Below, in pieces: positions 37,123 to 56,851 of a stretch of 63,384 nt of DNA (position 1 is its first letter; every line of letters starts with the position of its first letter). The stretch spans positions 1 through 63,384 of IMG/VR virus record IMGVR_UViG_3300017987_000091, one strand, 5' to 3'. Origin of the DNA: a virus. Lineage: Duplodnaviria; Caudoviricetes. The notes under the pieces were generated by a model. It saw only the letters and a list, made by a program, of their open reading frames with translations. It was not told the origin of the DNA and ran no database searches. The translations under genes and the position numbers were made by a program.

Positions 37123-37140
37123 GGTATTGCTCCTTTCGGC

Positions 37141-40278: not shown

Positions 40279-40346
40279 TGGGCCCCCGTGTGGTCGCGTG
40301 TTTTTCTAGGGTGGGACCAGGTGGGCCGGATCCGTCAACGATCGAC

Positions 40347-40386
40347 GTGGATCCACTTGGAAAAACCGCTCATTCGCCTGTACAAT
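40347..40386 (+). promoter_or_regulatory. Candidate promoter with palindromic operator
   Basis: GTGGATCCAC-TTGGAA-N18-TACAAT; same layout as 12104-12142. Confidence 0.6.
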
Positions 40387-40432
40387 CTGCGCAGCCTTGT
40401 ACAACCCAGCACCAACAGGAAGGGATCCAGCC

Positions 40433-40903: not shown

Positions 40904-40905
40904 GA

Positions 40906-41178
40906 TCAGGCCAGCTTCGCTTCCCCGGTTTCTGGATCGATCTTGATCCCGCGGCCTTCAGGGTATCCTTGGGCGCGCTTCGTGCCTTCCTTCAGCCAGC
41001 CTTCAGGGGTGAAGAAGTAGCCGGCCCGTTTCACGGCCATCAGCGCCAGGTCGTGCCTGTCCTTGGCATCGAAGTCGGGATCAGCGTCAGCTACCAGCTG
41101 GGCCAGCTCCCTTTCGTAGATCCGGCGTGCTGCCTTGGGCAGTTCAGCCAGGGGGTCGCCATGACCGTCAGAATTCAT
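40906..41178 (-). CDS. Small protein, candidate MuF-toxin immunity/partner
   Basis: 90 aa, start overlaps the MuF stop; function inferred from position. Confidence 0.5.
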   Translation of the reverse strand: MNSDGHGDPLAELPKAARRIYERELAQLVADADPDFDAKDRHDLALMAVKRAGYFFTPEGWLKEGTKRAQGYPEGRGIKIDPETGEAKLA

Positions 41179-43789
41179 CGGGATCACCGAATCGCTTTTT
41201 GAAGTAGGCCGCTTCGCGGGGGTACATTTCTTCATAGGTATCAGGCGACATGTTCCAGATGCTGAAGTTCTCAGCGAAGTCTTCCCCTTCATTATACCGC
41301 GAATAGTCGGTGATCCACCCCTGATCAAGCAATTCCTTTTCCTTCACCTTGTCAATAAACAGGCCGCGGGTTCCTTCAGATTCTTCCAGATCCATGCGGT
41401 TCAGCAGGCGCTTGTAAGACTTCTTATAGCGGGGGTTCTGCATCCCTTCTATGGCCTTGGCTGTTATGTCCAGTTCGAACTTCGCCTGGTGCAGTTCGTC
41501 AGGCGTCAGCTTCACCCCGGCAGCCTTGGCAGCCCGCTGCACTTCCTTCACCTGTCGATCATCACCCCAGGGCAGCCGTTCGAACTTCAGGCGCTTGCCC
41601 GTCAGCCGTTCCACGTTGTCGGCCGCGGCTTTCCTGGCCCGTTCGTTGAATTCCTTGAAGTCAACCCATGGCCGCAAATTGGCCCAGTCTGGATCGCTGG
41701 TCCAATACTTCCCGCTGATCTTCCTTTCATAGTCCACATGGTGGCCCACTTCGTGCCTGATATACCGCTGGGCGTTCCACCGCACTGTCCTGTCCTTCGA
41801 TTGCAGTTCCTTGAACCTGTCGCTGCCGATCACGATCGTTCTGTTGTCGTGGGAATAGCTGGCCATGACACGTTGATCCGCATGGCGACCCTTCACGAAC
41901 CGCACAGTGGAAAGATCCTGGGCAAAGGTGTCGCCCATGCCCCGCACCACGTCCCTGACTTGCTTCTGTTCCTTGTCCTGCAGTTGATAGGTGCGTTGAT
42001 ATCCCTGGTACCTTGCGCCCTTCACGGGTTCGAACCGCTGGGGTTCCTGCATCACCCGTTCCACCGGCGCCAGTTCTTCCAGATCGAAATCTGAAACCGG
42101 GGGCGTGGCCACGTCTTCGGGTTCCACGATCTTCATGGGCTTCTTCGGCGGCGTCGGCGGTGGTGGCTTCGCGCTGGGCTTCCTTGGCTTCGGCACCTTC
42201 GTCGGTGGGGCCTTTGGCTTCGTCGGGGCCTTCTTTTTCGGTTTCGGCTTCGGTGCTGGCTTCGGCTTCGCCTTCGGCTTGCTGGGGGCCTTCTTCGGCT
42301 TCTTCGGCACGGGGCCCGCTTCGGTCGCCGGCGACGGCACCCGGTACGGCTTGCGCGGTTCCACGCCCTTGATCACCTTCTTGAAGGGCACTTCGGTGCT
42401 GAAGTCGTAGTCCTTCCCGCGGTGCTTCATCTGGCCGGTGATCACCAGGCTGTTCTTGCCTTCCTGGTGCGTCATGGTCACCGCGTTGCCCTTCTGCGGG
42501 CCCACCCGGCCCTGCAGTTCCCACCGTTCGGGGAAGTCCTTGGCCGTCTGACCAGGGATCAGGGTGTCGTTTTCCTTGGCTTCCTTCAGCTGTTCGCTGG
42601 GGGACTGGTGGGCCTTCACGGTGTAGCTGTTGTTCCCCAGCCTGACCAGCTGCCCCGGCCGCATGCGGGGGACGGGCAGCGGGATCGGATCCGGCTTCGG
42701 CTGGCCCATGATCACCGCTTCGGTGGCCTGGTACCGTTCGGCTTCCTTTATGAGCTCCACCACGTCTTCGTCGTCCCAGACGGGGGCAGCGGTGCACCTG
42801 CACTGATAGTCCTGGCCAGGGTGCAGGCTGCGCCCACCCACGTCGGGGGGCTTGTCCCAGTCGAAGATCTTGCCGTCAACGGCCCGGTGGGATTCCCGCA
42901 CCCGTTCGTCCCCCACGGTCATCCATTGGTACCTGTGGGCGTCCAGGGCCACCTGACGTTCCCCCCGCACCTGACCGTTGAACTTCCCCACCTGGTCCCT
43001 GGCGATCAGCCTGGCGCGGGATTCGGCCACGTTGTAGCGGCCTTCGATTTCCTTGGCCAGATCTTCCACGTTGCGGCCCAGGCGCAGGGCTTCTTCCAGG
43101 TGTTCGGCCACCTGGTCGTGATACTGCTGATCGATGCTGCTGATCAGGCTGACGTTCTCCCGAATGAACTGGCGCGCGGCGTCGGTGTCCTTCCCCGGCT
43201 TGAAGATGCTGATCTGGGCCACCCGCTGCACGTCGCGGTCCAGATCCTGGTTGGCGTTCTTGTCGATCCCCCTGGCCACAGCCCCGATCTTCCCCTTGCT
43301 GGGGGGGTTGCCCTTGCTGAAGGCCCGCTTGCTGCGCTCCACCACCCGCAGCACTTCGTGGGTATCGCCTTCCACGCTGTCCAGGTGGCGCACTTCGTCC
43401 AGCAGCTGCCCCAGGCCCATGGCCATGATTTCGTCCACTGTGAAGGCGTCGGCCCGCTTGGCCCGTTCGTTGATCCCCGGCCCCAGCTTCTTCAGCACCG
43501 GCTTCAGCTGTTCCATCAGAAACAGGTGGGCAGCCCTGGCACGGGCCACCAGCTGCTTGGTGTAGTCCTGTTCCACCTTGGCGGGGTAGGTGGGGGGGCT
43601 GTGCTTCCTGTTCTTGTACAGGGCCCTGGCCCGCTTCTGGGCGGCCTTGACAGCACGGCCGAACAGCTGGGCCTTCTGCTTGGCCCTGGCTTCGTCTTCG
43701 GCGTCGTTGGGGTCGTATACGAAGGCGGTGCCGTTCGGCCCCCACTGGAACGCCGGCTGCCCCCCCAGCTTGATCCGGCGCACGGCCAT
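41168..43789 (-). CDS. MuF (SPP1 gp7-like) minor head protein with C-terminal HExxH metallopeptidase-like domain
   Basis: RARLIARDQ, W.TVGDERVRESH, PGQDYQCRC; Pro/Lys linker; HEVGH...DYSRYNEGEDFAE...YPREAAYF. Confidence 0.85.
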   Translation of the reverse strand: MAVRRIKLGGQPAFQWGPNGTAFVYDPNDAEDEARAKQKAQLFGRAVKAAQKRARALYKNRKHSPPTYPAKVEQDYTKQLVARARAAHLFLMEQLKPVLKKLGPGINERAKRADAFTVDEIMAMGLGQLLDEVRHLDSVEGDTHEVLRVVERSKRAFSKGNPPSKGKIGAVARGIDKNANQDLDRDVQRVAQISIFKPGKDTDAARQFIRENVSLISSIDQQYHDQVAEHLEEALRLGRNVEDLAKEIEGRYNVAESRARLIARDQVGKFNGQVRGERQVALDAHRYQWMTVGDERVRESHRAVDGKIFDWDKPPDVGGRSLHPGQDYQCRCTAAPVWDDEDVVELIKEAERYQATEAVIMGQPKPDPIPLPVPRMRPGQLVRLGNNSYTVKAHQSPSEQLKEAKENDTLIPGQTAKDFPERWELQGRVGPQKGNAVTMTHQEGKNSLVITGQMKHRGKDYDFSTEVPFKKVIKGVEPRKPYRVPSPATEAGPVPKKPKKAPSKPKAKPKPAPKPKPKKKAPTKPKAPPTKVPKPRKPSAKPPPPTPPKKPMKIVEPEDVATPPVSDFDLEELAPVERVMQEPQRFEPVKGARYQGYQRTYQLQDKEQKQVRDVVRGMGDTFAQDLSTVRFVKGRHADQRVMASYSHDNRTIVIGSDRFKELQSKDRTVRWNAQRYIRHEVGHHVDYERKISGKYWTSDPDWANLRPWVDFKEFNERARKAAADNVERLTGKRLKFERLPWGDDRQVKEVQRAAKAAGVKLTPDELHQAKFELDITAKAIEGMQNPRYKKSYKRLLNRMDLEESEGTRGLFIDKVKEKELLDQGWITDYSRYNEGEDFAENFSIWNMSPDTYEEMYPREAAYFKKRFGDPDEF

Positions 43790-44106
43790 CAGTTCGCCCC
43801 GGCGTCTTCCAGTTCCAGATCCTGGTGCTGCTGCAGTACGTGATCGATGTGGGACACGATCGCGGGATAGACGCAGTTTGGCAAGTGCCCGAAGCTGACC
43901 ACCATGCGGCACCAGGGGCACAGGAAGCCGTCGTTGACGCGGATCGCTTCGGCGGTGACCAGGGCGTCCTTGGCAAATTCCAGGGCTTCCCTGCTGGCCG
44001 TCAGGGTGTCGTGCTGCTTCTGGATCCTGTCGCCCATGCCTTCCACCACTGTCCTGGCTGCGGGAAGGTCCAGAAAGCTGATCCCTATGGCGGCCGCGTC
44101 GGTCAC
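43789..44106 (-). CDS. Hypothetical protein with CxxC/HxxxC motif
   Basis: GTG start coupled to the upstream stop; CPWC...HLPNC. Confidence 0.55.
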   Translation of the reverse strand: MTDAAAIGISFLDLPAARTVVEGMGDRIQKQHDTLTASREALEFAKDALVTAEAIRVNDGFLCPWCRMVVSFGHLPNCVYPAIVSHIDHVLQQHQDLELEDAGAN

Positions 44107-44465
44107 TACTTCCCGGCGTCCTTGTCCTTCGGTTCGGCCTTCGGCTTGCTGTCCAGCTTCACGTCGCCCAGGTCGGCCTTCTGCCGCGCGGTCAGGGCCT
44201 TGTAGCACTGCTGTGCGTTCAGCAGGGCAGCCTTGAAGGCGGGGTTGGCCTTGGGCCCCAGCTTGCCCACTTCGGTGATCTTGAAGTCGCCCTGGTCCTT
44301 CTGCTGCTTGCTGGTCAGCTTCTTGAACTTCGCGTGCGCCAGCGCCAGGGCGTCCCAGAACCGGGCCAGCTTGTGGGCCGGCATGTTCCGGGCCTTGTAC
44401 TTGGCGGCCCTGGCTTTTTCCTTGGCTTCGCTTCCCATCTGGATCGTCAGGTTACCGGGGGGCAT
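44106..44465 (-). CDS. Hypothetical basic protein
   Basis: 119-aa Lys-rich ORF after the portal. Confidence 0.6.
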   Translation of the reverse strand: MPPGNLTIQMGSEAKEKARAAKYKARNMPAHKLARFWDALALAHAKFKKLTSKQQKDQGDFKITEVGKLGPKANPAFKAALLNAQQCYKALTARQKADLGDVKLDSKPKAEPKDKDAGK

Positions 44466-44468
44466 CGT

Positions 44469-46034
44469 TCATTCCTCCAAGGGTTCGGGTTCGTTGGTGT
44501 CGTCGTCGTCAGCTTCAGCCGCCTGTTCGGCCTTCAGGGCCGCACGGGCAGCCTGCAGGGCTTCTTCGTCCAGGTCGCCCACCGTCACCACCGGCTTGAT
44601 TTCGCTGCTGTAGCCGGCCGCGGTGAACATGGATTCGGCGACGTGCTGGGCGTTCAGCACCCCGGCCATGACCAGCTTGGCCACGAATTCGGCGTGAAGG
44701 TTCCTGATTTCGGCCAGTTCCTTTTCGCTGGGCTGGTCCAGTGGGTTGTAGATCACTTCCCAGGATTCGGGCACCAGGCCATTGGTGGGGCCTTCCTTGG
44801 CGCAGAACATGACGGTGCCAAGGATTTCCATGGGTTCGTCGTAGTTGTCGCCCTGTTCTTCGCTGATCCCTTCGGTCCAGGCGCTGCGGCCGGCCTGGTC
44901 GTCGGTGGACAGGCCGCCGGGGGAATTCCCCGTCAGGCGCACCAGCGGCACGTCGGCCGACATGGCCATGCCTTCCAAGGCCCCCCCGCGCAGTTCCTTG
45001 TAGCCGGTGGTGTTCGCCGGGATGGACTGGAAGTCTTCCCCCCCGCCTATGATGTTGATCCCCAGCAGGGACTTGGACTTGGCCATTTCCTGGATCCGCA
45101 TTTCGAACAGTTCCCGCTGGTCGCTGACTTCCAGATCTTCCAGGCCTTCGATCTTCAGCACGTCGCTGCGCAAGTCCTGGGCCAAGATCGCCCCGGCCTG
45201 GTCCACGCTGATGGTGTCCCTGATGTTGTCCCACCAGGCTTGCAGCATGCTGTCGTCCCAGCCCCCGTTCCCCATGTACGTCTTCACGTCGGTTTCGGCC
45301 CCACCGAAGTACAGCATGCGGCTGGCGTGGACCACTTCGCTGATGGACGTGTTCATGGGGGTGACGTTGTAGGTGGCCGCCGTCCTGAACCGCCTGTTGC
45401 GCACGTTGGCTTCGTAGGTATTGACGCTGGCTTCTTCCTTCGTCAGCACGATCAGGTTGCACAGCCTGGTAACCTTCTTGAAGTCCAAGGGTTCCTTCAG
45501 GGGGGGATCGCCTTCTTCGTCCACCACCATCCAGATCAGGGCCCCACCGTCCTTGCGCGCCATGGTGTGCGCCTTCTTGAAATGCTTGAACACCCCCAGG
45601 GCCTTCATGTCGTCCTTCAGGGGTTCGCTTTCTTCGACTTCGCTGCTTCCTTCCACTTCTTCGGTCACCACCACCTTCCAGCCCTTGCGGGTGGCGTGCT
45701 TCGGCACCATCTGGATCAGGCGCCTGGCGTAGCCGCAGAACCGCCAAAGTACGTCTATTTCGGATTCTGTCAGGGCTGCCCTGCTGGTGTTGGGCCTGGC
45801 TGACTGGCCCTTGTCGTAGGTGGTCCCTAGGCCGGTGATCGCGTTCTTGATACTGTCCACCCGCTGCAGCACCTGGTCGTACAGCTGCAGCTTGTTCAGC
45901 TCCAGATCCTGGGCCACCCCATGGGCCGCGGTGGCCATCCCCTGCGCGGCGTCCATGGCCGCGTCCACCCGCGTGGCCACGGCGGTGTCCACCCGCTGCA
46001 CCACTGCACCAGCAACACGATCGATCAGTCCCAT
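44469..46034 (-). CDS. Portal protein (DUF1073-like)
   Basis: NAITGLGT, ARKDGGA, VHASR, ADVPLVRLTGNSPGGL; follows terL. Confidence 0.88.
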   Translation of the reverse strand: MGLIDRVAGAVVQRVDTAVATRVDAAMDAAQGMATAAHGVAQDLELNKLQLYDQVLQRVDSIKNAITGLGTTYDKGQSARPNTSRAALTESEIDVLWRFCGYARRLIQMVPKHATRKGWKVVVTEEVEGSSEVEESEPLKDDMKALGVFKHFKKAHTMARKDGGALIWMVVDEEGDPPLKEPLDFKKVTRLCNLIVLTKEEASVNTYEANVRNRRFRTAATYNVTPMNTSISEVVHASRMLYFGGAETDVKTYMGNGGWDDSMLQAWWDNIRDTISVDQAGAILAQDLRSDVLKIEGLEDLEVSDQRELFEMRIQEMAKSKSLLGINIIGGGEDFQSIPANTTGYKELRGGALEGMAMSADVPLVRLTGNSPGGLSTDDQAGRSAWTEGISEEQGDNYDEPMEILGTVMFCAKEGPTNGLVPESWEVIYNPLDQPSEKELAEIRNLHAEFVAKLVMAGVLNAQHVAESMFTAAGYSSEIKPVVTVGDLDEEALQAARAALKAEQAAEADDDDTNEPEPLEE

Positions 46035-46064
46035 GGTGGTTCTCCTCGGTGGGAAGTGTCTCAC

Positions 46065-47615
46065 TTACAAGTCGCGCAGTCCAGCACCCCGCTTCTTCGC
46101 GCGTTCCAGCGCGTTCATGTTCTTCTCTTCGTCGCGGTGGGCGAACAGCTGGGCCATGGTGTCGGCCCTGTCGTTGGGCTTCGCAGGGAACCGGCACACT
46201 TCCCGGCGCCAGTCTTCGATCCACGGTGCGAACTGGGGAAGGGGTAGGAACACTTCCCCGGCTGCGCACGGCGGCACGCCGTTCAGCTGGTTGAAGGTCA
46301 CCTTGTCCTTCACCCCGCGGGGGTACAGCTTCACGCCCTTGATCTTCCCCTTGCAGTCGTTGTAAAGGGCGTGCCCGTTGGCCTTGTCTTCGATCAGCTT
46401 CAGCTTCACCTGTGGCCACTTCTTGGCCATCGTCTTGAAGGCGAACTTTCCTTCATCGTAGGGGCACTGTTCACGCCATTCGTCCAGCAGGAACCGATAA
46501 GCCCCCCGCCAGCCCCACACCTGGATTACCCAGTAGCTGTTCCCCTTGCCCCCCACCAGGTTCGGATCGCAGCTGATGTCCCACATGTCGCACTTCAGGC
46601 GCCAGGGTTCGCCCTGGTAGAACTGTTTGAACCAGTCCATGCGGTACACCGCGAATTCCCCAAGCTGGGGCAGCTGTCTGAACTGCGCGTCTTCCTGGCT
46701 GCCCAGCTTGGCCTTCGTCTTTTCCACCTTGTCAGGCTTGATCAGGTCGGGGCACAGCAGTTCCCCGGCGGTGGTCCTGGGATCGTCGGGGGACTTGTGG
46801 GGGTGGTCGGGGTCGTACTCCATTGGAAGGCACAGGTGCACCACGTCTTCTTCGGCCAGGCGGTGGGCGAACAGGTCATTGGGGTGCACCCGCTGACCGA
46901 TCAGGATCCGGCCGGCCTTGCGTTCCCCGATATCGTCCACGCGGGTGGAAAGCACCTGGTCGTCGGTGTCGCACACGGCCTTCATGCGATCTTCGATCTG
47001 GTCGGGGGTGCCCAGTGCTGCGTCCTTCACGTCGTGGGGATCGTCCACGCTTTGCCGGTGGGCATGGGCCCCGGTCACCCCGCTGCCGATGGTCAGGGAC
47101 TGGCGCTGCCCCGTGGCCGTGTTGGCGTACAGCTGGATTTCGTTCTGGTCGCTGGCTAGTTCCCAGACGGGGGGGCCGCCGTTGGCCGCCACCTGTTCCT
47201 TCACGGCCTTGTACCACCCCGACGTGATGATCGATCGGGCCTTGATCGCGTCGCGCTTCACCAGGCTGTGGTCGTGGGACAGGCACTGCAGCCGAAACCA
47301 GGGCATGTCCAGCCATTCCCAGGCCGGGTGAAGCACGCTGCAGGACAGGGACTTGCAGCAGCCGGGTGGGATGTTGATCACCAGGTTGGTGATTTCCCCC
47401 CGCGTCACCCGCTGCATGTACTCAAAGATCAGGTCAATGTGCCAGGTGGACACGTAGGGGGTGGCCGGTTCCACGATGGGCCACGCGCCCCGCGCGAAGT
47501 CGTGCAGGTTCATGCTGGCGCTGGTGTGCAGCTTGGCAAGTTCGATCTGGGCGTCCAGGGCCTGGATGTACCGCTGCAGTTCGTCCACCGGGGGCAGCTG
47601 CAGGGGTTCGTTCAC
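46065..47615 (-). CDS. terL: Terminase large subunit
   Basis: INIPPGCCKS, VDDPH, QRVHPNDL, IEDKANG, FPAKPNDRADTM. Confidence 0.93.
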   Translation of the reverse strand: MNEPLQLPPVDELQRYIQALDAQIELAKLHTSASMNLHDFARGAWPIVEPATPYVSTWHIDLIFEYMQRVTRGEITNLVINIPPGCCKSLSCSVLHPAWEWLDMPWFRLQCLSHDHSLVKRDAIKARSIITSGWYKAVKEQVAANGGPPVWELASDQNEIQLYANTATGQRQSLTIGSGVTGAHAHRQSVDDPHDVKDAALGTPDQIEDRMKAVCDTDDQVLSTRVDDIGERKAGRILIGQRVHPNDLFAHRLAEEDVVHLCLPMEYDPDHPHKSPDDPRTTAGELLCPDLIKPDKVEKTKAKLGSQEDAQFRQLPQLGEFAVYRMDWFKQFYQGEPWRLKCDMWDISCDPNLVGGKGNSYWVIQVWGWRGAYRFLLDEWREQCPYDEGKFAFKTMAKKWPQVKLKLIEDKANGHALYNDCKGKIKGVKLYPRGVKDKVTFNQLNGVPPCAAGEVFLPLPQFAPWIEDWRREVCRFPAKPNDRADTMAQLFAHRDEEKNMNALERAKKRGAGLRDL

Positions 47616-47625
47616 CGTCGCCGTC

Positions 47626-48810
47626 CTATTCGTTCACGGGCTCGGTGTCGTCGTCGCCCTGGTCGTCGCCGGCGACCACCACCCGGCCTTCCCCGTTGGC
47701 TTCCAGCAGCAGCCCTTCGTCCTGCATCCTGCGCAGTTCCAGGGCTTCCATGGCTTCTTCACGCTTGCGCTGCAGGGCTTCCAGGGACAGGCCACCGAAG
47801 TCGAAGGTGTGGACCGTCTGCACCGGCTGATCGCCACCCTGGACCACGTGGTGCACCTTGTCGCTGTAGTCCTGGCTGAAGCGGGATTCCATGAACCGCA
47901 GGGCCAGCTTCCCGTCGCCCAGCTTCGTGATCTGCCGGATCGGTTCCCCGGTTTCGGGATCCACCACGGGGGCCCCGGTGCGGTCCACCCCAGCCACCTG
48001 GTGGGGCCTGGTGTTTTCCAGCACGGCCTTCAGGTACAGCCTGGCGCAGAAGGCTTCTGCTTCCTGGAAGGCCAGCAGGAAGTCCAGGTAGGCCTGTTCG
48101 TGGGGCGTCACCCGTTCCCCCGGCGTCGTTTCGTCCAGGTACCGCTGACGCTGCTGGGCCTTGCGTCCCTTGTCCAGCCAGTTCGTCAGGCCCTGACGGG
48201 TGATCCGTGCACCCTGTGCAGCCAGGCGGTGCGTACACCCCAGGCGGATCGCTTCCAGCACGGCTTCCTTCCTGGCGTCGGTGAACTTCCAGGCGGGGTG
48301 TTGTGGATCCCCACCGTTGCCCCCCCTGGGGTTGTCGGGGGTGTCAGGCGGCAGCGTCACCGGGGGTTCAGTCGGCTGGGGTGCAGGGGGTGGGGTGCAG
48401 CTGGCGCGGGTGCGTGTGCCTGCTAGGCCAGCCACGACGCCAGGCCTACCGCCTGACTGGTGTGCCGAAGTTGTACCTTTCCCCCGACCATTGCCCCGGC
48501 CGTTTCCCTTGCTGGAAGGGCTGGTGCCCTTGCCATTGCCCCGACCATTGCCACCCCCTGGATCCTTACTAGATCCCAAGGTAGGGGATCCCAAAGAAAC
48601 AGGAGAAGAAGGGGAAAGGGATCTGGATCTTGATCTAGAACTTGATCCTGATCCGTTGCTTGTGGATCCGCCGTTGGATCCGTTGGACTTGGTGCGTCGT
48701 GCCCATGACTTGATCGTGTTTGGGGACAGGTCGAAACGCCGGGCCGCTGTGCGGTATCCCACACCGTGTTCCTGCATCCAGGCCAGCACTGTTTCTTTGT
48801 CGTTTCGCAT
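47626..48810 (-). CDS. terS: Terminase small subunit-like protein (N-terminal HTH, long Ser/Gly/Pro linker)
   Basis: AARRFDLSPNTIKSW HTH; KFT...AIRLG...AAQGARITRQGLTNW; directly upstream of terL. Confidence 0.72.
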   Translation of the reverse strand: MRNDKETVLAWMQEHGVGYRTAARRFDLSPNTIKSWARRTKSNGSNGGSTSNGSGSSSRSRSRSLSPSSPVSLGSPTLGSSKDPGGGNGRGNGKGTSPSSKGNGRGNGRGKGTTSAHQSGGRPGVVAGLAGTRTRASCTPPPAPQPTEPPVTLPPDTPDNPRGGNGGDPQHPAWKFTDARKEAVLEAIRLGCTHRLAAQGARITRQGLTNWLDKGRKAQQRQRYLDETTPGERVTPHEQAYLDFLLAFQEAEAFCARLYLKAVLENTRPHQVAGVDRTGAPVVDPETGEPIRQITKLGDGKLALRFMESRFSQDYSDKVHHVVQGGDQPVQTVHTFDFGGLSLEALQRKREEAMEALELRRMQDEGLLLEANGEGRVVVAGDDQGDDDTEPVNE

Positions 48811-48908
48811 GCTGTGGTAGTGGGGTGCGCTGGGGTGCACCTTGTGGGGAGGATACCAGGGTGGGGTGCGCTTGAGAAGTGGGATCCCGGCTGGTGGGGT
48901 GCACCAGG

Positions 48909-48986
48909 TGGTGACCCTAACGGGATTTGAACCCGTGTTGCCGGGATGAAAACCCGGTGTCCTGGACCTGGCTGGACGATAGGGTC
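48909..48986 (-). tRNA. tRNA-Glu (anticodon TTC)
   Basis: Acceptor GACCCTA/TAGGGTC + A + CCA; anticodon stem CCGGG/CCCGG with loop TTTTCAT; T-arm ACGGG-TTCAAAT-CCCGT. Confidence 0.93.
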
Positions 48987-49119
48987 AGCAGCTGGTGGCG
49001 ATGGTAGCACAGGGGTGGGGTGCAGTGTGCCGGCCCCTGGGCTGCATGGACTGAGGGGGGAGGGGGGGCGCCCATGCAGTGGTTCCAGGCGCCGGCGGTG
49101 TCATGGTACCATGGCCGGC

Positions 49120-49500
49120 ATGGGGAAGCAGTACAGCCAGCAGGAAGTCCACGAAGCCCTGACGGTGCTGGGCCTGGTGGACGAAATCCAGCGCACCCGG
49201 CGGATCACCACCGACCAGGCGCACCAGGCTTTCAAGCAGCTGGCGAAGACGCTGCACCCAGACGTGGGGGGCACCGAAGAAGGGTTCAGGCGCCTGAACT
49301 GGGCCTGTGGGGTGGTTCGTGACTTGCGGGGCGTGAAGCTGGCACCGATGCCGGCGCCGGTGGTTCAGCAGGTGCGGGTGGTGCACGTGCACCAGCAGGG
49401 CTTCAGCATGTGGTCAGATCCCTTTGACACCACCGCCACGAACAGCGCCACAGGTTCCACCTTTAACTGCAGGTGCTGGCCCTTCCCAGACACCGTTTGA
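49120..49500 (+). CDS. J-domain (DnaJ-like) protein
   Basis: ALTVLGL...AFKQLAKTLHPDVGGTEEGFRRLN (HPD motif). Candidate promoter TTCCAG-N18-TACCAT ends 7 nt before the ATG. Confidence 0.75.
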   Translation: MGKQYSQQEVHEALTVLGLVDEIQRTRRITTDQAHQAFKQLAKTLHPDVGGTEEGFRRLNWACGVVRDLRGVKLAPMPAPVVQQVRVVHVHQQGFSMWSDPFDTTATNSATGSTFNCRCWPFPDTV

Positions 49501-49848
49501 TCGCTGCTGCCGGCGGATCGCTTCGCGCAGTTCCTTGTACAGCTGGGCCAGCTTCTTGTCGCTGTGGCGGCCGGTCATGATCTGCCGGCTGATCTGGGCT
49601 GGGGATCGGTCCATGGTGTTGGCCGTGGTGGGGGTGGTGCCTGGTCGTTGACCGTGCTGCAGCGGCTTCCAGCCCCCTGCGCGGTATGGGCCGCCGGTGG
49701 CCCACGGTGCCACCTGTTACGTGTGGGCCATGGTACCACATGGGGAACCACCTGGTGGGGTGGCAGTTACCAGCAGTTAAGTGCCCCAGGTGGGGCTTCG
49801 CCGATATTTTTGCCGAAAAAATCAGCGAAGGGGTGGTGGCCTATTCCT

Positions 49849-50012
49849 GACGACTGCGACGGGAACTAGTCCACTGGCCCATACTGCGACGGCAGCGACG
49901 ATACCAGGACAGGCTGCCTGTCCAGCTACTTCCTGAAGGTTTACGGGCAGTTAGCAACGACAGCGACGACTGCGACGGGTGCGACGGCAAGCTGGACAAC
50001 GACTGCGACGGG
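49849..50012. repeat. Iteron-like direct repeats (CTGCGACGG), candidate replication origin
   Basis: CTGCGACGG at 49854, 49884, 49970 and 50003, plus partial copies, in a non-coding gap next to an AT-rich patch at ~49803-49823. Confidence 0.55.
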
Positions 50013-50013
50013 C

Positions 50014-50265
50014 CTACTTCTGCAGCACCTTCAGCACTTCGTCGGCGAACTGGTCCAGGTAGGGCCCCAGGTAGTCCCGATCGCAGGACGCTTCAAACAC
50101 GTTCAGGGTGAAGTAGGTTTCCCGTTCCCCGTCCGAAACGGTGATCCTGTAGTCGTAGGCTTCGCAGGACACGGCGACCACGTAGCCGGTGGACAGTGCG
50201 CTGGCCATGCGGTCAGCAATGAACCGGCGAAAGGCCACGATCCTGGGCTGGTCGTGCAGCTTCAT
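50014..50265 (-). CDS. Hypothetical protein
   Basis: 83 aa, ATGA coupled. Confidence 0.6.
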   Translation of the reverse strand: MKLHDQPRIVAFRRFIADRMASALSTGYVVAVSCEAYDYRITVSDGERETYFTLNVFEASCDRDYLGPYLDQFADEVLKVLQK

Positions 50266-50480
50266 ACGATGATCAGCCGCTGTTCGTCGCCATCTGGTTC
50301 CTTGAACACCAGCTGCCCACCATCGATCACGTGGAAGGTGGCAAGGTCCAGTAGCTTCAATGCGCGCCTGAACACTTCGGCACGGCTGCCGGCGCCCAGG
50401 CGTCCCTGCAGGTCGTCCATCAGTTCCCGGTAGGCTGGATCGACTTCAAACTGCAGCCGGATCGGTGGTTGGCTTCCCAT
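50262..50480 (-). CDS. Ribbon-helix-helix (CopG-like) regulator
   Basis: IRLQFEV...LMDDL...SRAEVFRRALKLL. Confidence 0.7.
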   Translation of the reverse strand: MGSQPPIRLQFEVDPAYRELMDDLQGRLGAGSRAEVFRRALKLLDLATFHVIDGGQLVFKEPDGDEQRLIIV

Positions 50481-50481
50481 G

Positions 50482-51009
50482 CTATTCACCCCCACAGGGC
50501 CCCGGCACGTGGACCAGGCCGCAGGTGTCGCAGATCGCGGCCGCGCCGGTGTAGTCCTTGCCTGGAATGCCGTAGCGTCCAGGCTTCACCATGGCCACGC
50601 GGTCCTTCTTGCGGCTGCGTTCCTGTGCCAGCACGGCCGACACGGTGCCACTGGTCACCTGGCGGTTCTTGCAGGACTTCTTCACCAGGGGGACCAGTTC
50701 CTGGACGGTCAGCAGTCGGCCTTCAGCTTCCAGCACCTTGGCAATGTGGTCGATCAGTGGTGGGCCGTCCGTCTGGATCTTGCGCTTCTTGCCCTTGTCG
50801 GCCCTGGGGGCCTTCTTCGCCGGCCGTTGGCCTGGTGGGATCGTGACCTTCGGCGGGGTGGTGGTGGTGCCCTTCTGTTCCCAGGTGGGCTTCAGTGGCA
50901 TCGTGGGCCGGGGCTTCGGCTTGCTGGCGGTGGTCGCCGGCGGCCGCGTCGGTGGGGGTTCGTCGTCAGGGTCCAGCAGGTCGTCCACGTCCACCATGGG
51001 GGTGGGCAT
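50482..51009 (-). CDS. Winged-HTH (HARE-HTH-like) protein; possibly 3' part of the DUF3310 gene
   Basis: LIDHIAKVLEAEGRLLTVQEL...TVSAVL...VKPGRYG. Confidence 0.6.
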   Translation of the reverse strand: MPTPMVDVDDLLDPDDEPPPTRPPATTASKPKPRPTMPLKPTWEQKGTTTTPPKVTIPPGQRPAKKAPRADKGKKRKIQTDGPPLIDHIAKVLEAEGRLLTVQELVPLVKKSCKNRQVTSGTVSAVLAQERSRKKDRVAMVKPGRYGIPGKDYTGAAAICDTCGLVHVPGPCGGE

Positions 51010-51395
51010 CGGGGGCCCTGTGCGCTGCTGGTCATGGCCGTCGTCGTCGTCGTCGCAGTCGTCGCCGGCGGCGCGTCGTCATCGTCGCCCAGGTCGTCGC
51101 CGGCGCTGAAGTCGGCGCGGTCCCCGCCGTTGTCGCCGGGGTCGCTGGCCACCTGCAGGTTCACCTGGAACCGTAGCCGGCCAGCCTGGACTTCCTGCTG
51201 CTGGATCCACCTGTCCAGGTACCATCTGGCCTTCTTCGCGTCTTCCAGCGGATCACCCTTGCGGCCGATCCTGGCCAGGTACTTGATCACATTGCCAAGG
51301 TGGAACCCCAGATCCCAGGCTTCGATCACGTTGATCGCTTCGTAGGTTCCCGGCCTGTAGTGGTCGGGGTGGTTCACTTGTTCCTTGGTTGTCAC
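50892..51395 (-). CDS. DUF3310-domain protein
   Basis: VNHPDHY...EAINVI...GFHLGNVIKYLARIGRKG...EDAKKARWYL. The C-terminus looks off-frame after ~51073. Confidence 0.8.
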   Translation of the reverse strand: MTTKEQVNHPDHYRPGTYEAINVIEAWDLGFHLGNVIKYLARIGRKGDPLEDAKKARWYLDRWIQQQEVQAGRLRFQVNLQVASDPGDNGGDRADFSAGDDLGDDDDAPPATTATTTTTAMTSSAQGPRCPPPWWTWTTCWTLTTNPHRRGRRRPPPASRSPGPRCH

Positions 51396-51652
51396 CCTTC
51401 CAGCTCCCCCCCGGCCACGCGCTTGGCCAGCTTCGCCTTGGCCCAGACAATGGCGTCCCCCTTGTCCTTCGGGGGCACGAACATGTTGGTGGCTTCGACG
51501 GTGGCAAGTTCACACTGGCCGACTTCTTCCTGGTAGGTGGCGATCACGTCGTCCTTGCTGGGGCCCTGGACGATCCCGCCGTCGTGGGCGACCAGGATCC
51601 AGGTGTGTTCTTCGGGGGTGCCGATCTTCAGCAGGTGGATCAGCTTTCGCAT
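51392..51652 (-). CDS. Hypothetical protein
   Basis: MRKLIHLL with GAGG RBS; coupled to the next gene. Confidence 0.55.
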   Translation of the reverse strand: MRKLIHLLKIGTPEEHTWILVAHDGGIVQGPSKDDVIATYQEEVGQCELATVEATNMFVPPKDKGDAIVWAKAKLAKRVAGGELEG

Positions 51653-53556
51653 GGTGGTTCCTCGCTTTCTTCGGCGTCGTCGCCGTTGGTTGGTGTGCAG
51701 TCCTTGTTTGGACAGCATGGTGGTTTCACGGTGCAGAAGTCCAGGAAGTAGGGGCAGCTGACGCAGCCGCGCATGGGGGGAACCGTCAGGCCGATGATTT
51801 CCAGGGCTTCGGCCAGCCGGTCCACCGACTTGCGGCCGAAGTTCTCGACCTTCAGCAGTTCCCGGCGCCCATAGTCCAGCAGCTGGCCCACCGTTTCGAT
51901 CTTCTGGTTTATGAACATGTTTTCGATCCTGGTGGCGATCCCGTCGTCCCCGATTTCCAGCTGGGCCACGGGGATCTTCATGCGCCGATCCCGCGTCATG
52001 TCGTAGCCTGCAAACCGTGGGGGCGTTTCCTGCTTGTCCAGTCGCCCTTCCAGTTCGTTCATGCGTTCAGTCAGGTGCAGGTGCTGCTTGCCGTCGTGGC
52101 GTTCCAGGTTGCGCAGCCTGGCGCTGTACCTGTCAACGTCTTCCAGGGCGCGTTCCAGCTTGTTCAGCCTGGTGTTGGTGCGCTTCTTGTAGCCTTCCAG
52201 CTGCTGTTCGGCTTTCTGCAGGTGCGCTTCCTGCACCATGCGCAGATCATGGAACTGGGCTGCTTCTGCTTGCTGGGCTTGCAGCTGCCGCACCTGTTTT
52301 TCCAGGTCGTCCACCGCCTGGAAGATGGCACGATCCCGGCCGATGTCCCCGATCCGGTCAAACAGGGAAGGCCCCCCGTCTTCCTGGACATGGTAGCCGC
52401 ACAGCTGGCACCGTTCCCCATGGACAGGCACGCCAGGGCCCCCACAGTAGGGGCAGCGGCCGGCCGCGTCCTTCTTCATATTCGGGGGCACCCCGGCCCA
52501 GCTGTGGACCTGGGCGTGGATCGTCGTGCTGGCTTCCACGTCGGCGTCGTCGCCGATTTCGTGGACTTTCCAGTCAGGTGGTTCACCTTGATATCCACAG
52601 TCAGGGCATGGGATCAGCGGTCCAGGGCAGCCGAAGATCGGCCCGGTGCCCCCGCACTTGGAACATGTGGCCTTCGGCTTGTCGCCGTCGTCGTTGGCTT
52701 CCAGCTTCTGCAGCCGCTGTTCCATGGAATGAACCAAGGCGCGCAGCTGGATCAGCTGCTGGTCCAGGGTACGCTTCTGCAGCTTGATAAAGTACCTTCT
52801 GGCGCCGTCGCCTTCACAGCGGTCACAGGTGACTTCCCCACCTTGGAAACCGATCCGGCCCGAACCGTTGCACATTTCGCACAGGGGATCGCTGGTGGCC
52901 GTGTCGTCGCCGGCGTCCTTCGCTTCCAGCTGGGCTTCCAGCGTGTCGGCGATACTGTCAAGCCGTGGGGACGGGATGCTGATGCCGCAGGCAACCAAGG
53001 CGCGCAGTTCCTGCACGACGCCCTGGACAACGGCGATCAGGTCGCCGTACCTGTCGCCCAGCCTGTCGGCGTGTTCCTGGTGGCGCCTGGCTGTGCCACG
53101 CCATTGATCCCGTTCCACCCGCAGCTGACCTGCTTCGTGTTCCCAGTTGTCGCGCTGCCGGCGCAGGTGGCCGGCTTCGGCCTTCAGCTGATCACGTGCT
53201 TCACCCTTGCAGGCGTGCAGCCCTACTTCCCCGCAGGCTGCGCACCGTCCCAGCTGTTCATTCCCTTCCCCTTCTATGGGGGTGAACAGCTTGTCGAGCG
53301 GTGCGGGCCCTTCTGGGGTGTTGTCGGGGTTCCAGCCAGGCTTCAGGCGCCCACCGGCCGGCATTAGCTGTTCAGCCATGAACTGCTTGGCCAGCTGGTC
53401 CAGGTCCAGGGGGCCCAGGAAGTCGCCGTCTTCCAGGCTGAAGTCGTAGGCTTCAGACAACCAGCCGATCCCGCCGTCCCCCCCGACAACGATCACGGTC
53501 CACGATCCTGGCTTGCCGGCCAGGTAGTAGCCTGGTTTCGTTGGTGTTTCAGCCAT
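51640..53556 (-). CDS. Multidomain protein: coiled coils, CxxCxGxG zinc fingers and a C-terminal RNA polymerase alpha-CTD-like domain
   Basis: CEMCNGSG, CDRCEGDG, CSKCGGTG; ...RIENMF...IETVGQLL...ELLKVENFGRKSVDRLAEAL. Confidence 0.72.
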   Translation of the reverse strand: MAETPTKPGYYLAGKPGSWTVIVVGGDGGIGWLSEAYDFSLEDGDFLGPLDLDQLAKQFMAEQLMPAGGRLKPGWNPDNTPEGPAPLDKLFTPIEGEGNEQLGRCAACGEVGLHACKGEARDQLKAEAGHLRRQRDNWEHEAGQLRVERDQWRGTARRHQEHADRLGDRYGDLIAVVQGVVQELRALVACGISIPSPRLDSIADTLEAQLEAKDAGDDTATSDPLCEMCNGSGRIGFQGGEVTCDRCEGDGARRYFIKLQKRTLDQQLIQLRALVHSMEQRLQKLEANDDGDKPKATCSKCGGTGPIFGCPGPLIPCPDCGYQGEPPDWKVHEIGDDADVEASTTIHAQVHSWAGVPPNMKKDAAGRCPYCGGPGVPVHGERCQLCGYHVQEDGGPSLFDRIGDIGRDRAIFQAVDDLEKQVRQLQAQQAEAAQFHDLRMVQEAHLQKAEQQLEGYKKRTNTRLNKLERALEDVDRYSARLRNLERHDGKQHLHLTERMNELEGRLDKQETPPRFAGYDMTRDRRMKIPVAQLEIGDDGIATRIENMFINQKIETVGQLLDYGRRELLKVENFGRKSVDRLAEALEIIGLTVPPMRGCVSCPYFLDFCTVKPPCCPNKDCTPTNGDDAEESEEPPCES

Positions 53557-53755
53557 TGGACACCCCCTTGATCCTGGCGTTGGGGTACAGCTCCTGTATT
53601 TCTTCCACGGTATGGCCGGCCCTTCGCATCTGCTTCGCGTTCCATGTTCCGTCGCAGCAGTCTTCCCAGCTTACTGACTTGTGACAGCACCGGCACACAC
53701 CATCAGGGCACAGTTCAGCCGTTTCCTTGTCGCAGATATTGCAGCGTTCAGCCAT
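53549..53755 (-). CDS. Small Cys-rich protein
   Basis: MAERCNICD...CPDGVCRCC...CC. Confidence 0.55.
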   Translation of the reverse strand: MAERCNICDKETAELCPDGVCRCCHKSVSWEDCCDGTWNAKQMRRAGHTVEEIQELYPNARIKGVSNG

Positions 53756-54272
53756 TGCCGTCCCCCTTCCCGTCCACCACCACCCCCTTGGGCCGCAGTT
53801 CAGGCACCAGGCGGTCCTTGCCCAGCCGTTCCCACAGGTGCAGCACCCCGTCGAAGGGGGTGACTTCTGACGCCGGCGGGAACACCTGCACCACGACGCT
53901 GCTGCGCCTGAACATGGCTTCCCGCACCAGTTCCATGTCGTGGTGCGTCGGCATGCCGTAGGGCCGATCGGGGTTGGACAGGCTGACATGGAACCACGGG
54001 GGCCCGTCGTCGGGGCGTTCCACGCTGGCCATGATCCTGTTGTCGCGGATCATGAAGTAGGCCCCCGCGAAGTTCGGCATGAACAGGGGGCCCTTCAGTT
54101 CGGGGTTCACGATCGTGGGCATGGCCCGCTTGATCTGGTGGTACTGTTCGATCTGGGCGTCGCTGGTGGGGACGGGGCTGCGCCCATCGGCCGCGGCCTG
54201 GGCCGCCTTTTCGGCTTCGGCGTCGTCCATGGCCTTCGCCACGTCGCTTTTCAGTTCGGTGTTGTCTTGCAT
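53748..54272 (-). CDS. Conserved phage hypothetical protein
   Basis: WFHVSLS..DR...PT...M...F...QVFPP...LHLW pattern. Confidence 0.65.
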   Translation of the reverse strand: MQDNTELKSDVAKAMDDAEAEKAAQAAADGRSPVPTSDAQIEQYHQIKRAMPTIVNPELKGPLFMPNFAGAYFMIRDNRIMASVERPDDGPPWFHVSLSNPDRPYGMPTHHDMELVREAMFRRSSVVVQVFPPASEVTPFDGVLHLWERLGKDRLVPELRPKGVVVDGKGDGNG

Positions 54273-54277
54273 CGGGT

Positions 54278-54658
54278 TCACTCCGTTGGTGTTCCCTGCG
54301 CCAGTCTGAACAGCACAGGGGTGTGGTTTGTGTGTTCCACCAGGCCTTCGGCCACCAGCTGCCACAGGGCACGATCTGGGGGCTTCCTGAAGGCCACGTC
54401 AGCGGTGTAGTCCATCAGCTGCACCATGGCAGCGTTGAAGGTGCAGGGGCCGTGCTGGGCCAGGTGGTCCAGCAGGAAGCACCGCCAGGCTTCGACGCTG
54501 TGCCGCGCCATGTCCTTGCGCCAGGCGGTTGCGCTTTTCTTGCGGGCACCCCGTGGGGTTCGGCGTGGATCGTCGGGGTGGCGCACCAGGTGGACGTATT
54601 CGTGAAGCCCCTGGCGTTCCAGGGGCCCCGTGTGCCAGGTGGTCGCCGGCGCCGTCAT
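54278..54658 (-). CDS. Hypothetical protein
   Basis: 126 aa, ATGA coupled. Confidence 0.55.
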   Translation of the reverse strand: MTAPATTWHTGPLERQGLHEYVHLVRHPDDPRRTPRGARKKSATAWRKDMARHSVEAWRCFLLDHLAQHGPCTFNAAMVQLMDYTADVAFRKPPDRALWQLVAEGLVEHTNHTPVLFRLAQGTPTE

Positions 54659-54746
54659 GGCTTCACCTGGTCAACCTGGAAGGCGATCACCTTCACGGTG
54701 GGGTTGTCTTCCCAGCGGTACCCCCGGCGGCCGTTGATCTGGTGGG

Positions 54747-55277
54747 TTATTTGGTTCGGCAGATTGTGGAAACAGTGGACTGGGACAAGCCTAGAACACG
54801 CGCAGCATGCCGACGACTGCACAAGCCGTTGGAAACAGCCCAACGAAGATGATCCCGTTGAGCGTCGGTCAGCTTTGCTGCATGGTGTTTTTCCCCTTCG
54901 CAGCTTCTGCCATGCGCTTTTCGATCCAGCCAGTTTTCTTGCTGCGTTCCCCACCGCAGATTTTCCGGCCTGTTGTTCGATCGGTCGCCGTCTAAATGCC
55001 TTGTTTGTAGCGTGCTCGGTTCTGGCATCCCATGAAAAGCCATGCAGACCAAACGGTGCACGTTCTTGGTGATCTTCTTTCCTTCGTGGCAAAGCGACAC
55101 CGATTGATATCCATTTTTTGCCTTGAATCCGACAAGTGGATACCAGTCTACATAGTGTTTGTGCCCAAAACCTGCGTACTTGGTTCGTGAATAGATCTGC
55201 CCATCGTTCCCGGCCATGTAATCGTCGTTGGGAGCTATTGGAATAGGCTTCAGGATTACACCATTTGATAGTTCCAT
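54747..55277 (-). CDS. HNH homing endonuclease (NUMOD4/HNH_3-like)
   Basis: VHRLVCMAFHG...RHLDGDRSNNRPENLRWGT..EN; lower GC than flanks. Confidence 0.88.
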   Translation of the reverse strand: MELSNGVILKPIPIAPNDDYMAGNDGQIYSRTKYAGFGHKHYVDWYPLVGFKAKNGYQSVSLCHEGKKITKNVHRLVCMAFHGMPEPSTLQTRHLDGDRSNNRPENLRWGTQQENWLDRKAHGRSCEGEKHHAAKLTDAQRDHLRWAVSNGLCSRRHAARVLGLSQSTVSTICRTK

Positions 55278-55322
55278 AGGCCCTATGGTTATCCCGTTCC
55301 CGAACCCCTGTCAAGCGCCAGG

Positions 55323-55595
55323 TCATCGGCGATCCAGCATTTCGTCCACGTCGGCCTTCGTCGTGGCTTCGTTGGTGGGCCGCGCCAGGCGCCCCGACTT
55401 GTAGGTGGCCACGTCCACCGGCTTCGCCAGCCGATCGAAGGCTTCCACTGGTTCCATCACCCTGAAAAACTCGTCTCCCAAAGTGCTCAACGTGGTGTTG
55501 TACGGCTTTCCTTGTCGGCTTTTCGCGTAGGTGATCACCTTATCAAAGTCGATCCTGCTTTTTGTTCCGTCGTCATTAGTAACGATGATCCACAT
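55323..55595 (-). CDS. Hypothetical protein
   Basis: MWIIVTND with GAAGGA RBS. Confidence 0.6.
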   Translation of the reverse strand: MWIIVTNDDGTKSRIDFDKVITYAKSRQGKPYNTTLSTLGDEFFRVMEPVEAFDRLAKPVDVATYKSGRLARPTNEATTKADVDEMLDRR

Positions 55596-55783
55596 GGTTC
55601 CTTCCCTTCCCGTGGTTGTTAAAGCCCACCAGGTGGCACCGTGCAGCCATTTTGGTAGCGGCGCGGCGTACACGGTGCCCCTGGTCCTGCGGGCCGCAGG
55701 CTGCGGTCCTGGCTTGCCCTACTGCCCAACACACCCTTCAGCTGTTGGTTGTTAAAAAACGCCAGGCCGCTGGGGTTCCTTGT

Positions 55784-56545
55784 CTATCCTTCCCGGCGCA
55801 CCACCCGCAGGGTGGCGCCCCTGTGCTTCTTGATCACCTGCTGCACGTCAGCGGCCGGCACAGGGCTGTCCATGGGCCAGCGGTGCAGCACGGTAGTGGG
55901 CGCGACGAACGGCGGGGGGGTGCCGTTGTCGAAGCCTTGCCGCGCGAAGTAGGACCGCACCTTCTTCGGGGGTGCTGCGTCCACCTTCTTGCAGGCTTCC
56001 AGGGCGTCGCGCATGCGGCCCCAGGTTTCCCGATCCGGGGCCTTCACCAGTTCCAGGATGGTGTTGGCCGTCACCACCGGCAGTTCGGTTTGTGCTGGTG
56101 GCGCCTTGGGCACCGCTGGCGCCTTGGGCACCGCTGGCGCCTTGTCGTCGGCGTCCTGTGGTACCAACGGCGAAGCCAGCCAGGCGTCTATGATTTCTCC
56201 GATCAGCTTATAGCCGGCTTGCCGGTTGAAGCAGCGCCTGAACACGGTGTTGATATCGGCGGCCTTCGGCCTGTCCTTCCCGGCTTCCACCGCCTGGTTG
56301 ATCAGGTAGTACCCCAGGCCCCGCATTAGGGGGGTGGGGTCCAGGAAGTCTTCGTGCTTCCGCGGCAGCGACCACCTGGCCCTGAAGCCTTCCAGCACGT
56401 CAGCAACGATCTGCGGTGCGTCAGCTGGTTCCAGGAACAGCCGGCGCACGGCGTCGTCCACCAGCTTGCTGCTGTCCAGCAGGTATTCGGGGTAAGCCAT
56501 CAGGCGGTTCCCCACGAACTTTTCCAGTTTTTCCTTGGTGACCAT
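55784..56545 (-). CDS. Hypothetical protein with APAVPK tandem repeat
   Basis: 253 aa; 18-bp duplication near 56100-56140. Confidence 0.6.
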   Translation of the reverse strand: MVTKEKLEKFVGNRLMAYPEYLLDSSKLVDDAVRRLFLEPADAPQIVADVLEGFRARWSLPRKHEDFLDPTPLMRGLGYYLINQAVEAGKDRPKAADINTVFRRCFNRQAGYKLIGEIIDAWLASPLVPQDADDKAPAVPKAPAVPKAPPAQTELPVVTANTILELVKAPDRETWGRMRDALEACKKVDAAPPKKVRSYFARQGFDNGTPPPFVAPTTVLHRWPMDSPVPAADVQQVIKKHRGATLRVVRREG

Positions 56546-56838
56546 CAGAACCCCCTTCGTGTGCGCTTCATGATCCGGCGGATCCGGCCGTACTGGTGCG
56601 GGTGCTGCCCCGCGGGGTACTTGTTCGCCAGGTACTGGGCCCGCTTCTTGCCGGCCTTCTTGCGGGCCAGCGCCTGTTCCTTGCGCTTGGCGGCCTTGTT
56701 CGGGCCGTCGTGGCGCACCAGGTACTTCCCCTGTGGCTTTCCGGCTTTACTGATGCGCCGGCGCCACAGCGACACAAGGGCCCCCAGCAGGCCATGCGCT
56801 TCTTCCTGGCTGACTGGTTGATCGTTACCCTTCCCCAT
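56545..56838 (-). CDS. Hypothetical basic protein
   Basis: 97 aa, coupled to the next gene. Confidence 0.55.
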   Translation of the reverse strand: MGKGNDQPVSQEEAHGLLGALVSLWRRRISKAGKPQGKYLVRHDGPNKAAKRKEQALARKKAGKKRAQYLANKYPAGQHPHQYGRIRRIMKRTRRGF

Positions 56839-56851
56839 GGTTCCTTCCCTT

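Follow-up and report, generated by a model that had tools for sequence, protein, structure and literature searches.

A single tRNA-Glu(UUC) gene beside the late genes of a GC-rich phage purged of GAG and CTC

Why phages carry tRNA genes has been debated for about 50 years, with GC-driven codon compensation set against counter-defence against tRNA-cleaving nucleases. The model of Bailly-Bechet et al. 2007, in which phage tRNAs compensate for codon usage, is summarised in PMC10264068, and a cyanophage example of such codon-compensating tRNAs is given in PMC3152331. In the relevant passages of PMC10264068 and PMC13015707, the codon mismatch in known cases is ascribed to a difference in GC content between phage and host. 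The evasion of anticodon nucleases is treated by van den Berg et al. 2023 (PMC10264068), who propose an altered anticodon loop as its signature. A separate body of work concerns the avoidance of short DNA words: the avoidance of restriction sites and PAMs by phages is reviewed in PMC8410138, where the targets cited are PAMs or sites of 4-8 bp; the depletion or under-representation of PAMs in phages is described in passages of PMC4246573 and PMC12174588. None of the papers recovered in our searches on phage tRNAs and motif avoidance connects the loss of a motif with the carriage of tRNAs.

The window analyzed here is the whole of a virus record, complete at 63,384 bp with terminal repeats (123-bp repeat), with a GC content of 58-66% in 2-kb windows and almost all of its genes on the minus strand. 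ARAGORN identified exactly one tRNA in this genome, a tRNA-Glu with anticodon UUC. A scan of the whole genome with Rfam placed the same gene in the tRNA family RF00005 (48912-48986, minus strand; 64.3 bits against a gathering score of 29, E=1.2e-11; alignment spanning model positions 1-71 of 71) and identified no second Rfam family. The RNA is 78 nt long, comprising 75 nt and an encoded CCA. It folds as a cloverleaf with a minimum free energy of −31.1 kcal/mol (z=−4.36), and none of 200 shuffled sequences folded equally well. The sequence and structure have an 11-nt D-loop, a 4-nt variable loop (CAAC) and the features of a GluRS substrate, namely UUC followed by A37, U11-A24 and G1-C72. We take the identity elements of Escherichia coli GluRS to be U34, U35, C36 and A37, the lack of residue 47, U11-A24 and G1-C72, and by this list the phage tRNA would be classed as a bacterial tRNA-Glu. 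Its pair 13-22 is C-G and its pair 2-71 is A-U, which is G.U in the Planctomycetota genes discussed below and presumably U-A in E. coli. The gene is free of GAG and CTC, the two words that are nearly absent from the rest of the genome. This is not significant alone (p about 0.24-0.29), given that both words are likewise absent from 20 of the 84 unique tRNA-Glu(UUC) genes of bacteria and from 18 of the 63 of viruses.

Genes were called with a GC3-based ORF picker made for this analysis, not a gene finder, and 72 ORFs were scanned with PHROGs and/or Pfam (Table 1). An initial annotation of the sequence had named this Glu(TTC) gene as the only tRNA and had placed it just upstream of the late operon. 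Both statements stand, with the strand (minus) added here: the two tRNA searches agree, and the next genes on the minus strand encode a terS-like protein, terL, the portal, the MuF-like protein, the protease and the major head protein. Translation of the terS-like ORF probably begins at an internal ATG near 48810. The head module is followed by genes for neck, sheath, tape measure and baseplate, and by this predicted gene content the phage is a myovirus. A plus-strand ORF with a weak J-domain-like motif lies directly upstream of the tRNA, which therefore seems to be the first element of the late minus-strand block; this divergent ORF also suggests a transcription-unit boundary at that point. 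A promoter and terminator scan around the tRNA gave no sigma-70-like sites and one plus-strand terminator-like site, which is within chance. Since neither kind of signal was recognised around the gene, we infer, rather than observe, that the tRNA and the late genes are co-transcribed.

Table 1. Positions of the tRNA gene, the neighbouring genes and other features in the 63,384-bp window.
Feature	Position	Strand	Evidence or remark
tRNA-Glu, anticodon UUC	48909..48986	-	ARAGORN; Rfam 64.3 bits; cloverleaf MFE
terS-like ORF, first protein gene after the tRNA	47626..48840	-	phrog_4102 terminase small subunit, E=5.4e-10 (weak); HTH_28 below cut-off
Terminase large subunit (terL)	46065..47615	-	phrog_38, E=1.8e-49; homologues with PF17289
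Head module, whole span	36028..46064	-	Profile matches
Portal	44469-46064	-	Head module
MuF-like	41168-43921	-	Head module
Protease/scaffold	38365-40278	-	Head module
ORF in head module	37141-38301	-	
Major head protein	36028-37122	-	Head module
Small ORF divergent from the tRNA, HPD J-domain-like motif	49111..49500	+	Pfam DnaJ, E=0.0029, 18.1 bits, below cut-off of 27.8
Small ORF inside head module, Phd/YefM antitoxin-like N-terminus	40397-40903	+	E=3e-7
GTGGGGTGCRC repeat cluster (coding strand GYGCACCCCAC)	48820..49025	+	Repeats on both sides of the tRNA and in the spacer between tRNA and terS-like ORF
DpdA-like transglycosylase	9450-10448	-	7-deazaguanine set
GTP cyclohydrolase I	10328-11167	-	7-deazaguanine set
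QueE-like radical SAM	10963-11895	-	7-deazaguanine set
QueD/PTPS	11616-11966	-	7-deazaguanine set
ParB-like gene	8711-9466		Adjoins 7-deazaguanine set
GAG/CTC trinucleotide depletion	1..63384	.	Glu forced onto GAA, Leu off CTC

Several other features of the layout were recorded. The short repeat GTGGGGTGCRC is clustered around the tRNA: all three of its exact copies, and seven of the 11 copies with at most one mismatch, lie within 48390-49274, while its genome-wide count is at chance level (11 against 9.5). These repeats may be putative binding sites of a late regulator or of a packaging protein. The two small plus-strand ORFs, one with the J-domain-like motif and one inside the head module with the antitoxin-like N-terminus, stand out in this minus-strand genome. 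In the early region, a 638-aa protein (51640-53556, minus strand) has a C-terminal match to PF03118, the C-terminal domain of the RNA polymerase alpha subunit (E=1.2e-8), and matches nothing in PHROGs; this protein is a possible factor for the takeover of host transcription. An MT-A70-family DNA adenine methyltransferase (57853-58539, minus strand) overlaps the gene of a DUF5131 protein (58518-59213). A set of 7-deazaguanine DNA-modification genes occupies 9450-11966 on the minus strand, and QueC was not found among the scanned ORFs.

The codon usage of the phage departs from its base composition in one two-fold family. Across 61 called genes, GAA and GAG were counted 879 and 44 times, respectively (95% GAA), and gene by gene, GAG never outnumbered GAA and was absent from 34 of the 61. 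In the same genes, AAG makes up 91% of Lys and CAG 92% of Gln, all two-fold families other than Glu are G/C-ending, and GC3 is high; CTC accounts for 1% of Leu. The effect extends beyond codons. On the plus strand, the trinucleotide GAG was observed 29 times against 772 expected and CTC 97 times against 1210, with observed-to-expected ratios (O/E) of about 0.04 and 0.08, respectively, in all frames and on both strands. Counted per frame on the coding strand, GAG occurred 51, 7 and 19 times and CTC 11, 6 and 9 times, where comparable words occurred in the hundreds. Because the two words are depleted in every frame and on both strands, the change in codon usage follows secondarily from selection at the level of DNA, and the forced switch to GAA described in the initial annotation is borne out. 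Together with the 7-deazaguanine genes, the purge means that this phage combines base modification with motif avoidance.

The GAG words that survive were also investigated. Among 97 survivors on the coding strand, 50 are Glu codons and eight are located 5-13 nt before a start codon, the latter mostly in GGAG-like Shine-Dalgarno contexts. Residual GAG codons were more frequent in six head and packaging genes (terL, portal, MuF-like, protease/scaffold, the ORF at 37141-38301 and major head protein), where they make up 17 of 211 Glu codons, than in the remaining genes, where they make up 32 of 828 (p=0.017, post hoc and uncorrected); their share was highest in the gene of the major capsid protein, at 4 of 19. 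Weakly, and only after the fact, this points to a host in which GAG is translated well. Further words are scarce in the genome, namely TCCG/CGGA (O/E 0.36/0.43), GATG/CATC (about 0.53) and GACC (0.54), and the Val codon GTC occurs at 12.4 per 1000, compared with 33-40 per 1000 in bacteria of matched GC.

An artefact of assembly or basecalling was considered as a cause of the depletion and rejected, as the long reading frames are uninterrupted, Shine-Dalgarno-like GGAG sites remain and the Logan contigs of two runs agree with the window. A sediment run (X1) and a seawater run (X3) each contain one contig of ~63.3 kb, at about 100x and 90x, respectively, which differ from the window by three substitutions and one one-base insertion over positions 44000-54000; either run may be the source sample. 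This agreement and the intact ORFs rule out an artefact of one assembly. Both contigs break inside the tRNA, where tRNA-Glu genes of the community pile up. As to the biological cause, the avoidance of GAG and CTC may be a form of anti-defence. A strand-symmetric target of 3 nt would, in our own suggestion, fit the PAM of a type I CRISPR system as well as a short-motif nuclease.

The demand for GAA was compared with that of bacterial proxies, which stand in for the true host. All 61 sense codons were ranked by phage-minus-bacteria frequency; the proxies were loci of 1.6-8 kb beside tRNA genes, with ORFs from a crude picker. The excess of GAA ranked second of 61, after CTG, against 18 Planctomycetota loci (GC 0.60-0.67), and first of 61 against 17 loci from all phyla (GC 0.60-0.68), and the two largest deficits against these proxies were those of GAG and CTC. 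Per 1000 codons, GAA occurs 52.6 times in the phage, compared with 26.9 in the Planctomycetota loci and 21.4 in the GC-matched loci of all phyla. On this basis, the cognate codon of the tRNA is commoner in the phage than in the proxies, which would be the classical mark of compensation if it extends to the true host. Total demand for Glu is not raised, at 55 per 1000 codons in the phage and 57-67 in the proxies. In 29 GC-rich bacterial loci, GAA makes up 7-71% of Glu, and at most 52% at a GC of 0.60 or above; none of them approaches the 95% of the phage. Planctomycetota loci with a GC of at least 0.60 use GAA for 5-62% of Glu, usually above the AAA share of Lys. The excess of CTG, the replacement for CTC, is equal to or above that of GAA, yet no tRNA-Leu(CAG) is carried. 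The chance that a single tRNA matches by amino acid or by anticodon is about 1 in 20 to 1 in 45.

The origin of the tRNA was investigated by comparison with bacterial and viral tRNA-Glu genes. Its 22-nt anticodon arm is common to tRNA-Glu genes of many phyla in a scan of species genomes and is not diagnostic; the stem-loop CCGGG-UUUUCAU-CCCGG is identical in several Planctomycetota genes (among them L407, L408, L411 and L412) and recurs in 120 stretches of bacterial DNA spread over many phyla. The long D-loop type is rarer, occurring in 17 of 117 pattern-bearing loci, of which 12 belong to PVC bacteria (Planctomycetota or Verrucomicrobiota) by record title. One Bdellovibrionota MAG has an identical D-loop, and the long-loop type is not exclusive to PVC. 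Across the D-arm and anticodon arm, several tRNA-Glu(UUC) genes in the 81 Planctomycetota genomes sampled differ from that of the phage at one of 32 positions. Over the core positions 8-66, there are two to three differences in 59 from two of the Planctomycetota genes (L407 and L412), and full-length identity to the best Planctomycetota tRNA-Glu(UUC) is 66-69 of 75 (about 90%). By comparison, the best tRNA-Glu of a deposited phage is 82% identical, and an exact 37-nt pattern of the tRNA had no matches in IMG/VR. In the acceptor stem, two double changes keep pairing (C6-G67 to U-A and G7-C66 to A-U) and a third change turns G2.U71 into A-U. Such pairing-preserving changes indicate selection for a working tRNA.

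From these comparisons, the tRNA was probably captured from a PVC-type, Planctomycetota-like host. The long D-loop type and the near-identity to Planctomycetota tRNA-Glu(UUC) make a PVC-type host a reasonable lead, not proof, and one that fits the labels, sediment and seawater, of the runs that contain the phage. Other approaches were less specific to a lineage. Correlation of codon usage gave r=0.93-0.955, with the top eight loci coming from at least three phyla, and did not separate phyla, and matches in the ESM Atlas were limited to 'Viruses' and clusters of generic terminases. When the whole phage was compared by BLAST with five Planctomycetota genomes, no spacer-like and no prophage-like matches appeared; the only matches were the tRNA, a weak FolE similarity and a repeat-like match of 71% identity (G044, part of the MuF-like gene). 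A Thermus-like host, an idea based on AGG/GGG/CCC usage, had no supporting result and was dropped. In the 81 Planctomycetota genomes, a pattern for the CUC isoacceptor was present in 11 and that for UUC in 36. As no genome can do without a tRNA-Glu, the sensitivity of the pattern is only about 44%.

The best-supported explanation, which we put forward tentatively and at slightly less than an even chance, is that a working tRNA-Glu(UUC), if expressed and charged, supplies GAA decoding for the late genes. A host tRNA-Glu(UUC) gene would have been captured, probably from a PVC-type bacterium, and as the first element of the late block, the tRNA would most likely be made with the packaging and head mRNAs. 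The purge of GAG and CTC leaves GAA at about 95% of roughly 1,000 Glu codons, and the phage tRNA, which pairs with GAA by Watson-Crick rules, would make more Glu-tRNA that decodes GAA available when late proteins are synthesized in bulk. Its retention would be favoured because GAA is among the two codons most over-used relative to GC-matched bacteria. The gene of the alternative Glu isoacceptor (CUC) would necessarily carry the avoided word itself. This account presumes expression, charging, a benefit to the phage and a causal tie to motif avoidance.

The initial annotation had gone further and proposed that the tRNA compensates for motif avoidance in a GC-rich host tuned to GAG. The part of this that concerns the phage is supported, as the tRNA is intact, unique and cognate to GAA, a codon ranking first or second of 61 against the proxies. 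The part that concerns the host agrees less well with the data: GC-rich Planctomycetota already use GAA for 5-62% of Glu, the CUC pattern was present in 11 of 81 genomes and the demand for Glu is not raised. Were the host to contain only tRNA-Glu(UUC), which reads both codons, a shift from GAG to GAA would add no load. The match between the tRNA and GAA is real; the causal link between the tRNA and the avoidance rests on one genome and is plausible but unproven. A longer sequence of events can be envisaged, in which the phage erased a bare 3-mer and so evaded a host system with a recognition site of only about 3 bp, for instance the PAM of a type I CRISPR system or the target of a short-motif nuclease; the decoding of glutamate was thereby narrowed to one codon, and a host-derived tRNA-Glu(UUC) was then fixed at the head of the late operon to meet this demand. 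We regard this sequence as possible, though doubtful.

In another reading, which we consider unlikely, the phage tRNA-Glu stands in for its host counterpart, which an anticodon nuclease or another tRNA-targeting defence cleaves or depletes upon infection, and the match to GAA is incidental. Such counter-defence is a general published hypothesis for phage tRNAs, set out in the relevant part of PMC10264068, and it suits a single, well-conserved tRNA ahead of the late genes, whose acceptor stem and D-stem differ from those of candidate-host tRNAs. The anticodon stem-loop is nevertheless identical to that of Planctomycetota and many other phyla (proxies, not the true host), and with the same anticodon loop as bacterial tRNA-Glu, the phage gene lacks the signature proposed for evasion. 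RNA ligase and polynucleotide kinase, moreover, were not found among the 72 ORFs scanned, and 'tRNA-Glu', 'tRNAGlu' and 'Glu' occur 0 times in the main text of PMC10264068.

The relatives of the phage bear on whether the tRNA and the purge occur together. No deposited phage matched a 12-kb stretch by megablast, and a single-sequence terL scan of IMG/VR gave no relative. By tblastn against deposited phages, terL reached at most 32% identity, and in a search of 5.8 billion proteins its best match was 46% identical, on contigs of 2-16 kb. Alignment-based terL scans recovered at least 80 IMG/VR loci (29-37% identity) and at least 80 metagenome loci (30-40%, best segment). Among the 160 terL relatives listed (29-39% identical), none was depleted in GAG/CTC (O/E 0.61-1.35 in IMG/VR and 0.43-1.04 in metagenomes) and none carried tRNA-Glu. 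The best full-length terL match among those listed, at 39%, was a 9.7-kb metagenome contig with a GC of 68% (L082), which also had the lowest GAG/CTC O/E of the 160 (0.43), with 63 GAA to 102 GAG and CTC at 11% of Leu. The shift in L082 is mild and possibly just host codon usage. Sediment runs X5 and X6 hold contig fragments at about 3x over 44000-54000, some identical to the window and others about 85-90% alike (e.g., 47973-48261, 48471-48774 and 49366-49590), and diverged relatives therefore exist in those runs. A panel was also compiled of 117 viral contigs that bear a signature of tRNA-Glu(UUC), and GAG/CTC depletion was seen in none of them (O/E 0.60-1.24). Of these, 99 were below 45% GC, and those inspected carry several tRNAs. 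Carriage of tRNA-Glu(UUC) thus does not in general need GAG depletion.

That all 117 of these contigs are undepleted, and that neither trait was seen in the 160 listed terL relatives and so gives no evidence of co-occurrence, is what would be expected of a passenger, a host tRNA-Glu picked up by chance with little or no selective value and a coincidental match to GAA. The roughly 90% identity to chromosomal Planctomycetota tRNA-Glu(UUC) points the same way. We nonetheless give this reading a low probability. The pairing-preserving stem changes and the perfect cloverleaf argue for maintained function rather than decay, the gene is free of GAG and CTC like the rest of the genome, it is the sole tRNA and cognate to one of the top two codons of 61, and its place at the head of the late block does not look random. 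Many temperate phages integrate into tRNA genes, but a role of this tRNA as the integration site of a temperate phage, or as its remnant, is very improbable because the tRNA is full length rather than a 3' fragment and the 72 ORFs scanned gave no match to an integrase, excisionase or recombinase family; the sole regulator-like match is a weak 'transcriptional repressor' (5687-5965), and the five candidate-lineage genomes gave no prophage-like DNA match.

The locus is an unusually clean natural case, in which a GC-rich phage has a single A-ending outlier with a cause at the level of DNA and a single matching tRNA. If the longer sequence of events set out above is true, anti-defence sequence editing, and not GC mismatch, can drive the acquisition of tRNAs by phages, and the tRNA content of a phage could serve as a readout of the DNA words recognised by host defences. 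The evasion of sequence recognition and the supply of translation would then be joined in the arms race between phage and host, and other motif-purged phages would be predicted to carry the tRNAs that their purge requires. Even if the link fails, that a phage with a 7-deazaguanine DNA-modification pathway has lost a 3-mer almost completely merits study in itself.

Compared with described systems, the locus shares some features with each and departs from each in others. Like the tRNAs held to evade anticodon nucleases, the phage gene is a copy of a host-like tRNA that could sustain translation during infection; unlike them, its anticodon loop is unchanged relative to the bacterial tRNA-Glu proxies, and the main text of PMC10264068 names no defence that targets tRNA-Glu. 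With the chromosomal tRNA-Glu(UUC) of PVC bacteria, it shares the 11-nt D-loop type, the 4-nt variable loop and discriminator A, whereas its acceptor stem reads GACCCUA/UAGGGUC in place of GGCCCCG/CGGGGUC and its position 13 is C in place of U. As in the avoidance of restriction sites and PAMs, a short word has been removed from both strands via synonymous choices; unlike the targets covered in the consulted sections of that literature, the word is a bare 3-mer, with an O/E of 0.04-0.08 in every frame. PAM depletion would be one candidate cause of such a strand-symmetric purge. Finally, as with codon-compensating tRNAs, the phage tRNA is cognate to a codon over-used relative to GC-matched bacteria (GAA, first or second of 61). 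Here, unlike in those cases, the codon is a lone A-ending outlier that arises from the avoidance of a DNA word and not from a difference in GC content.
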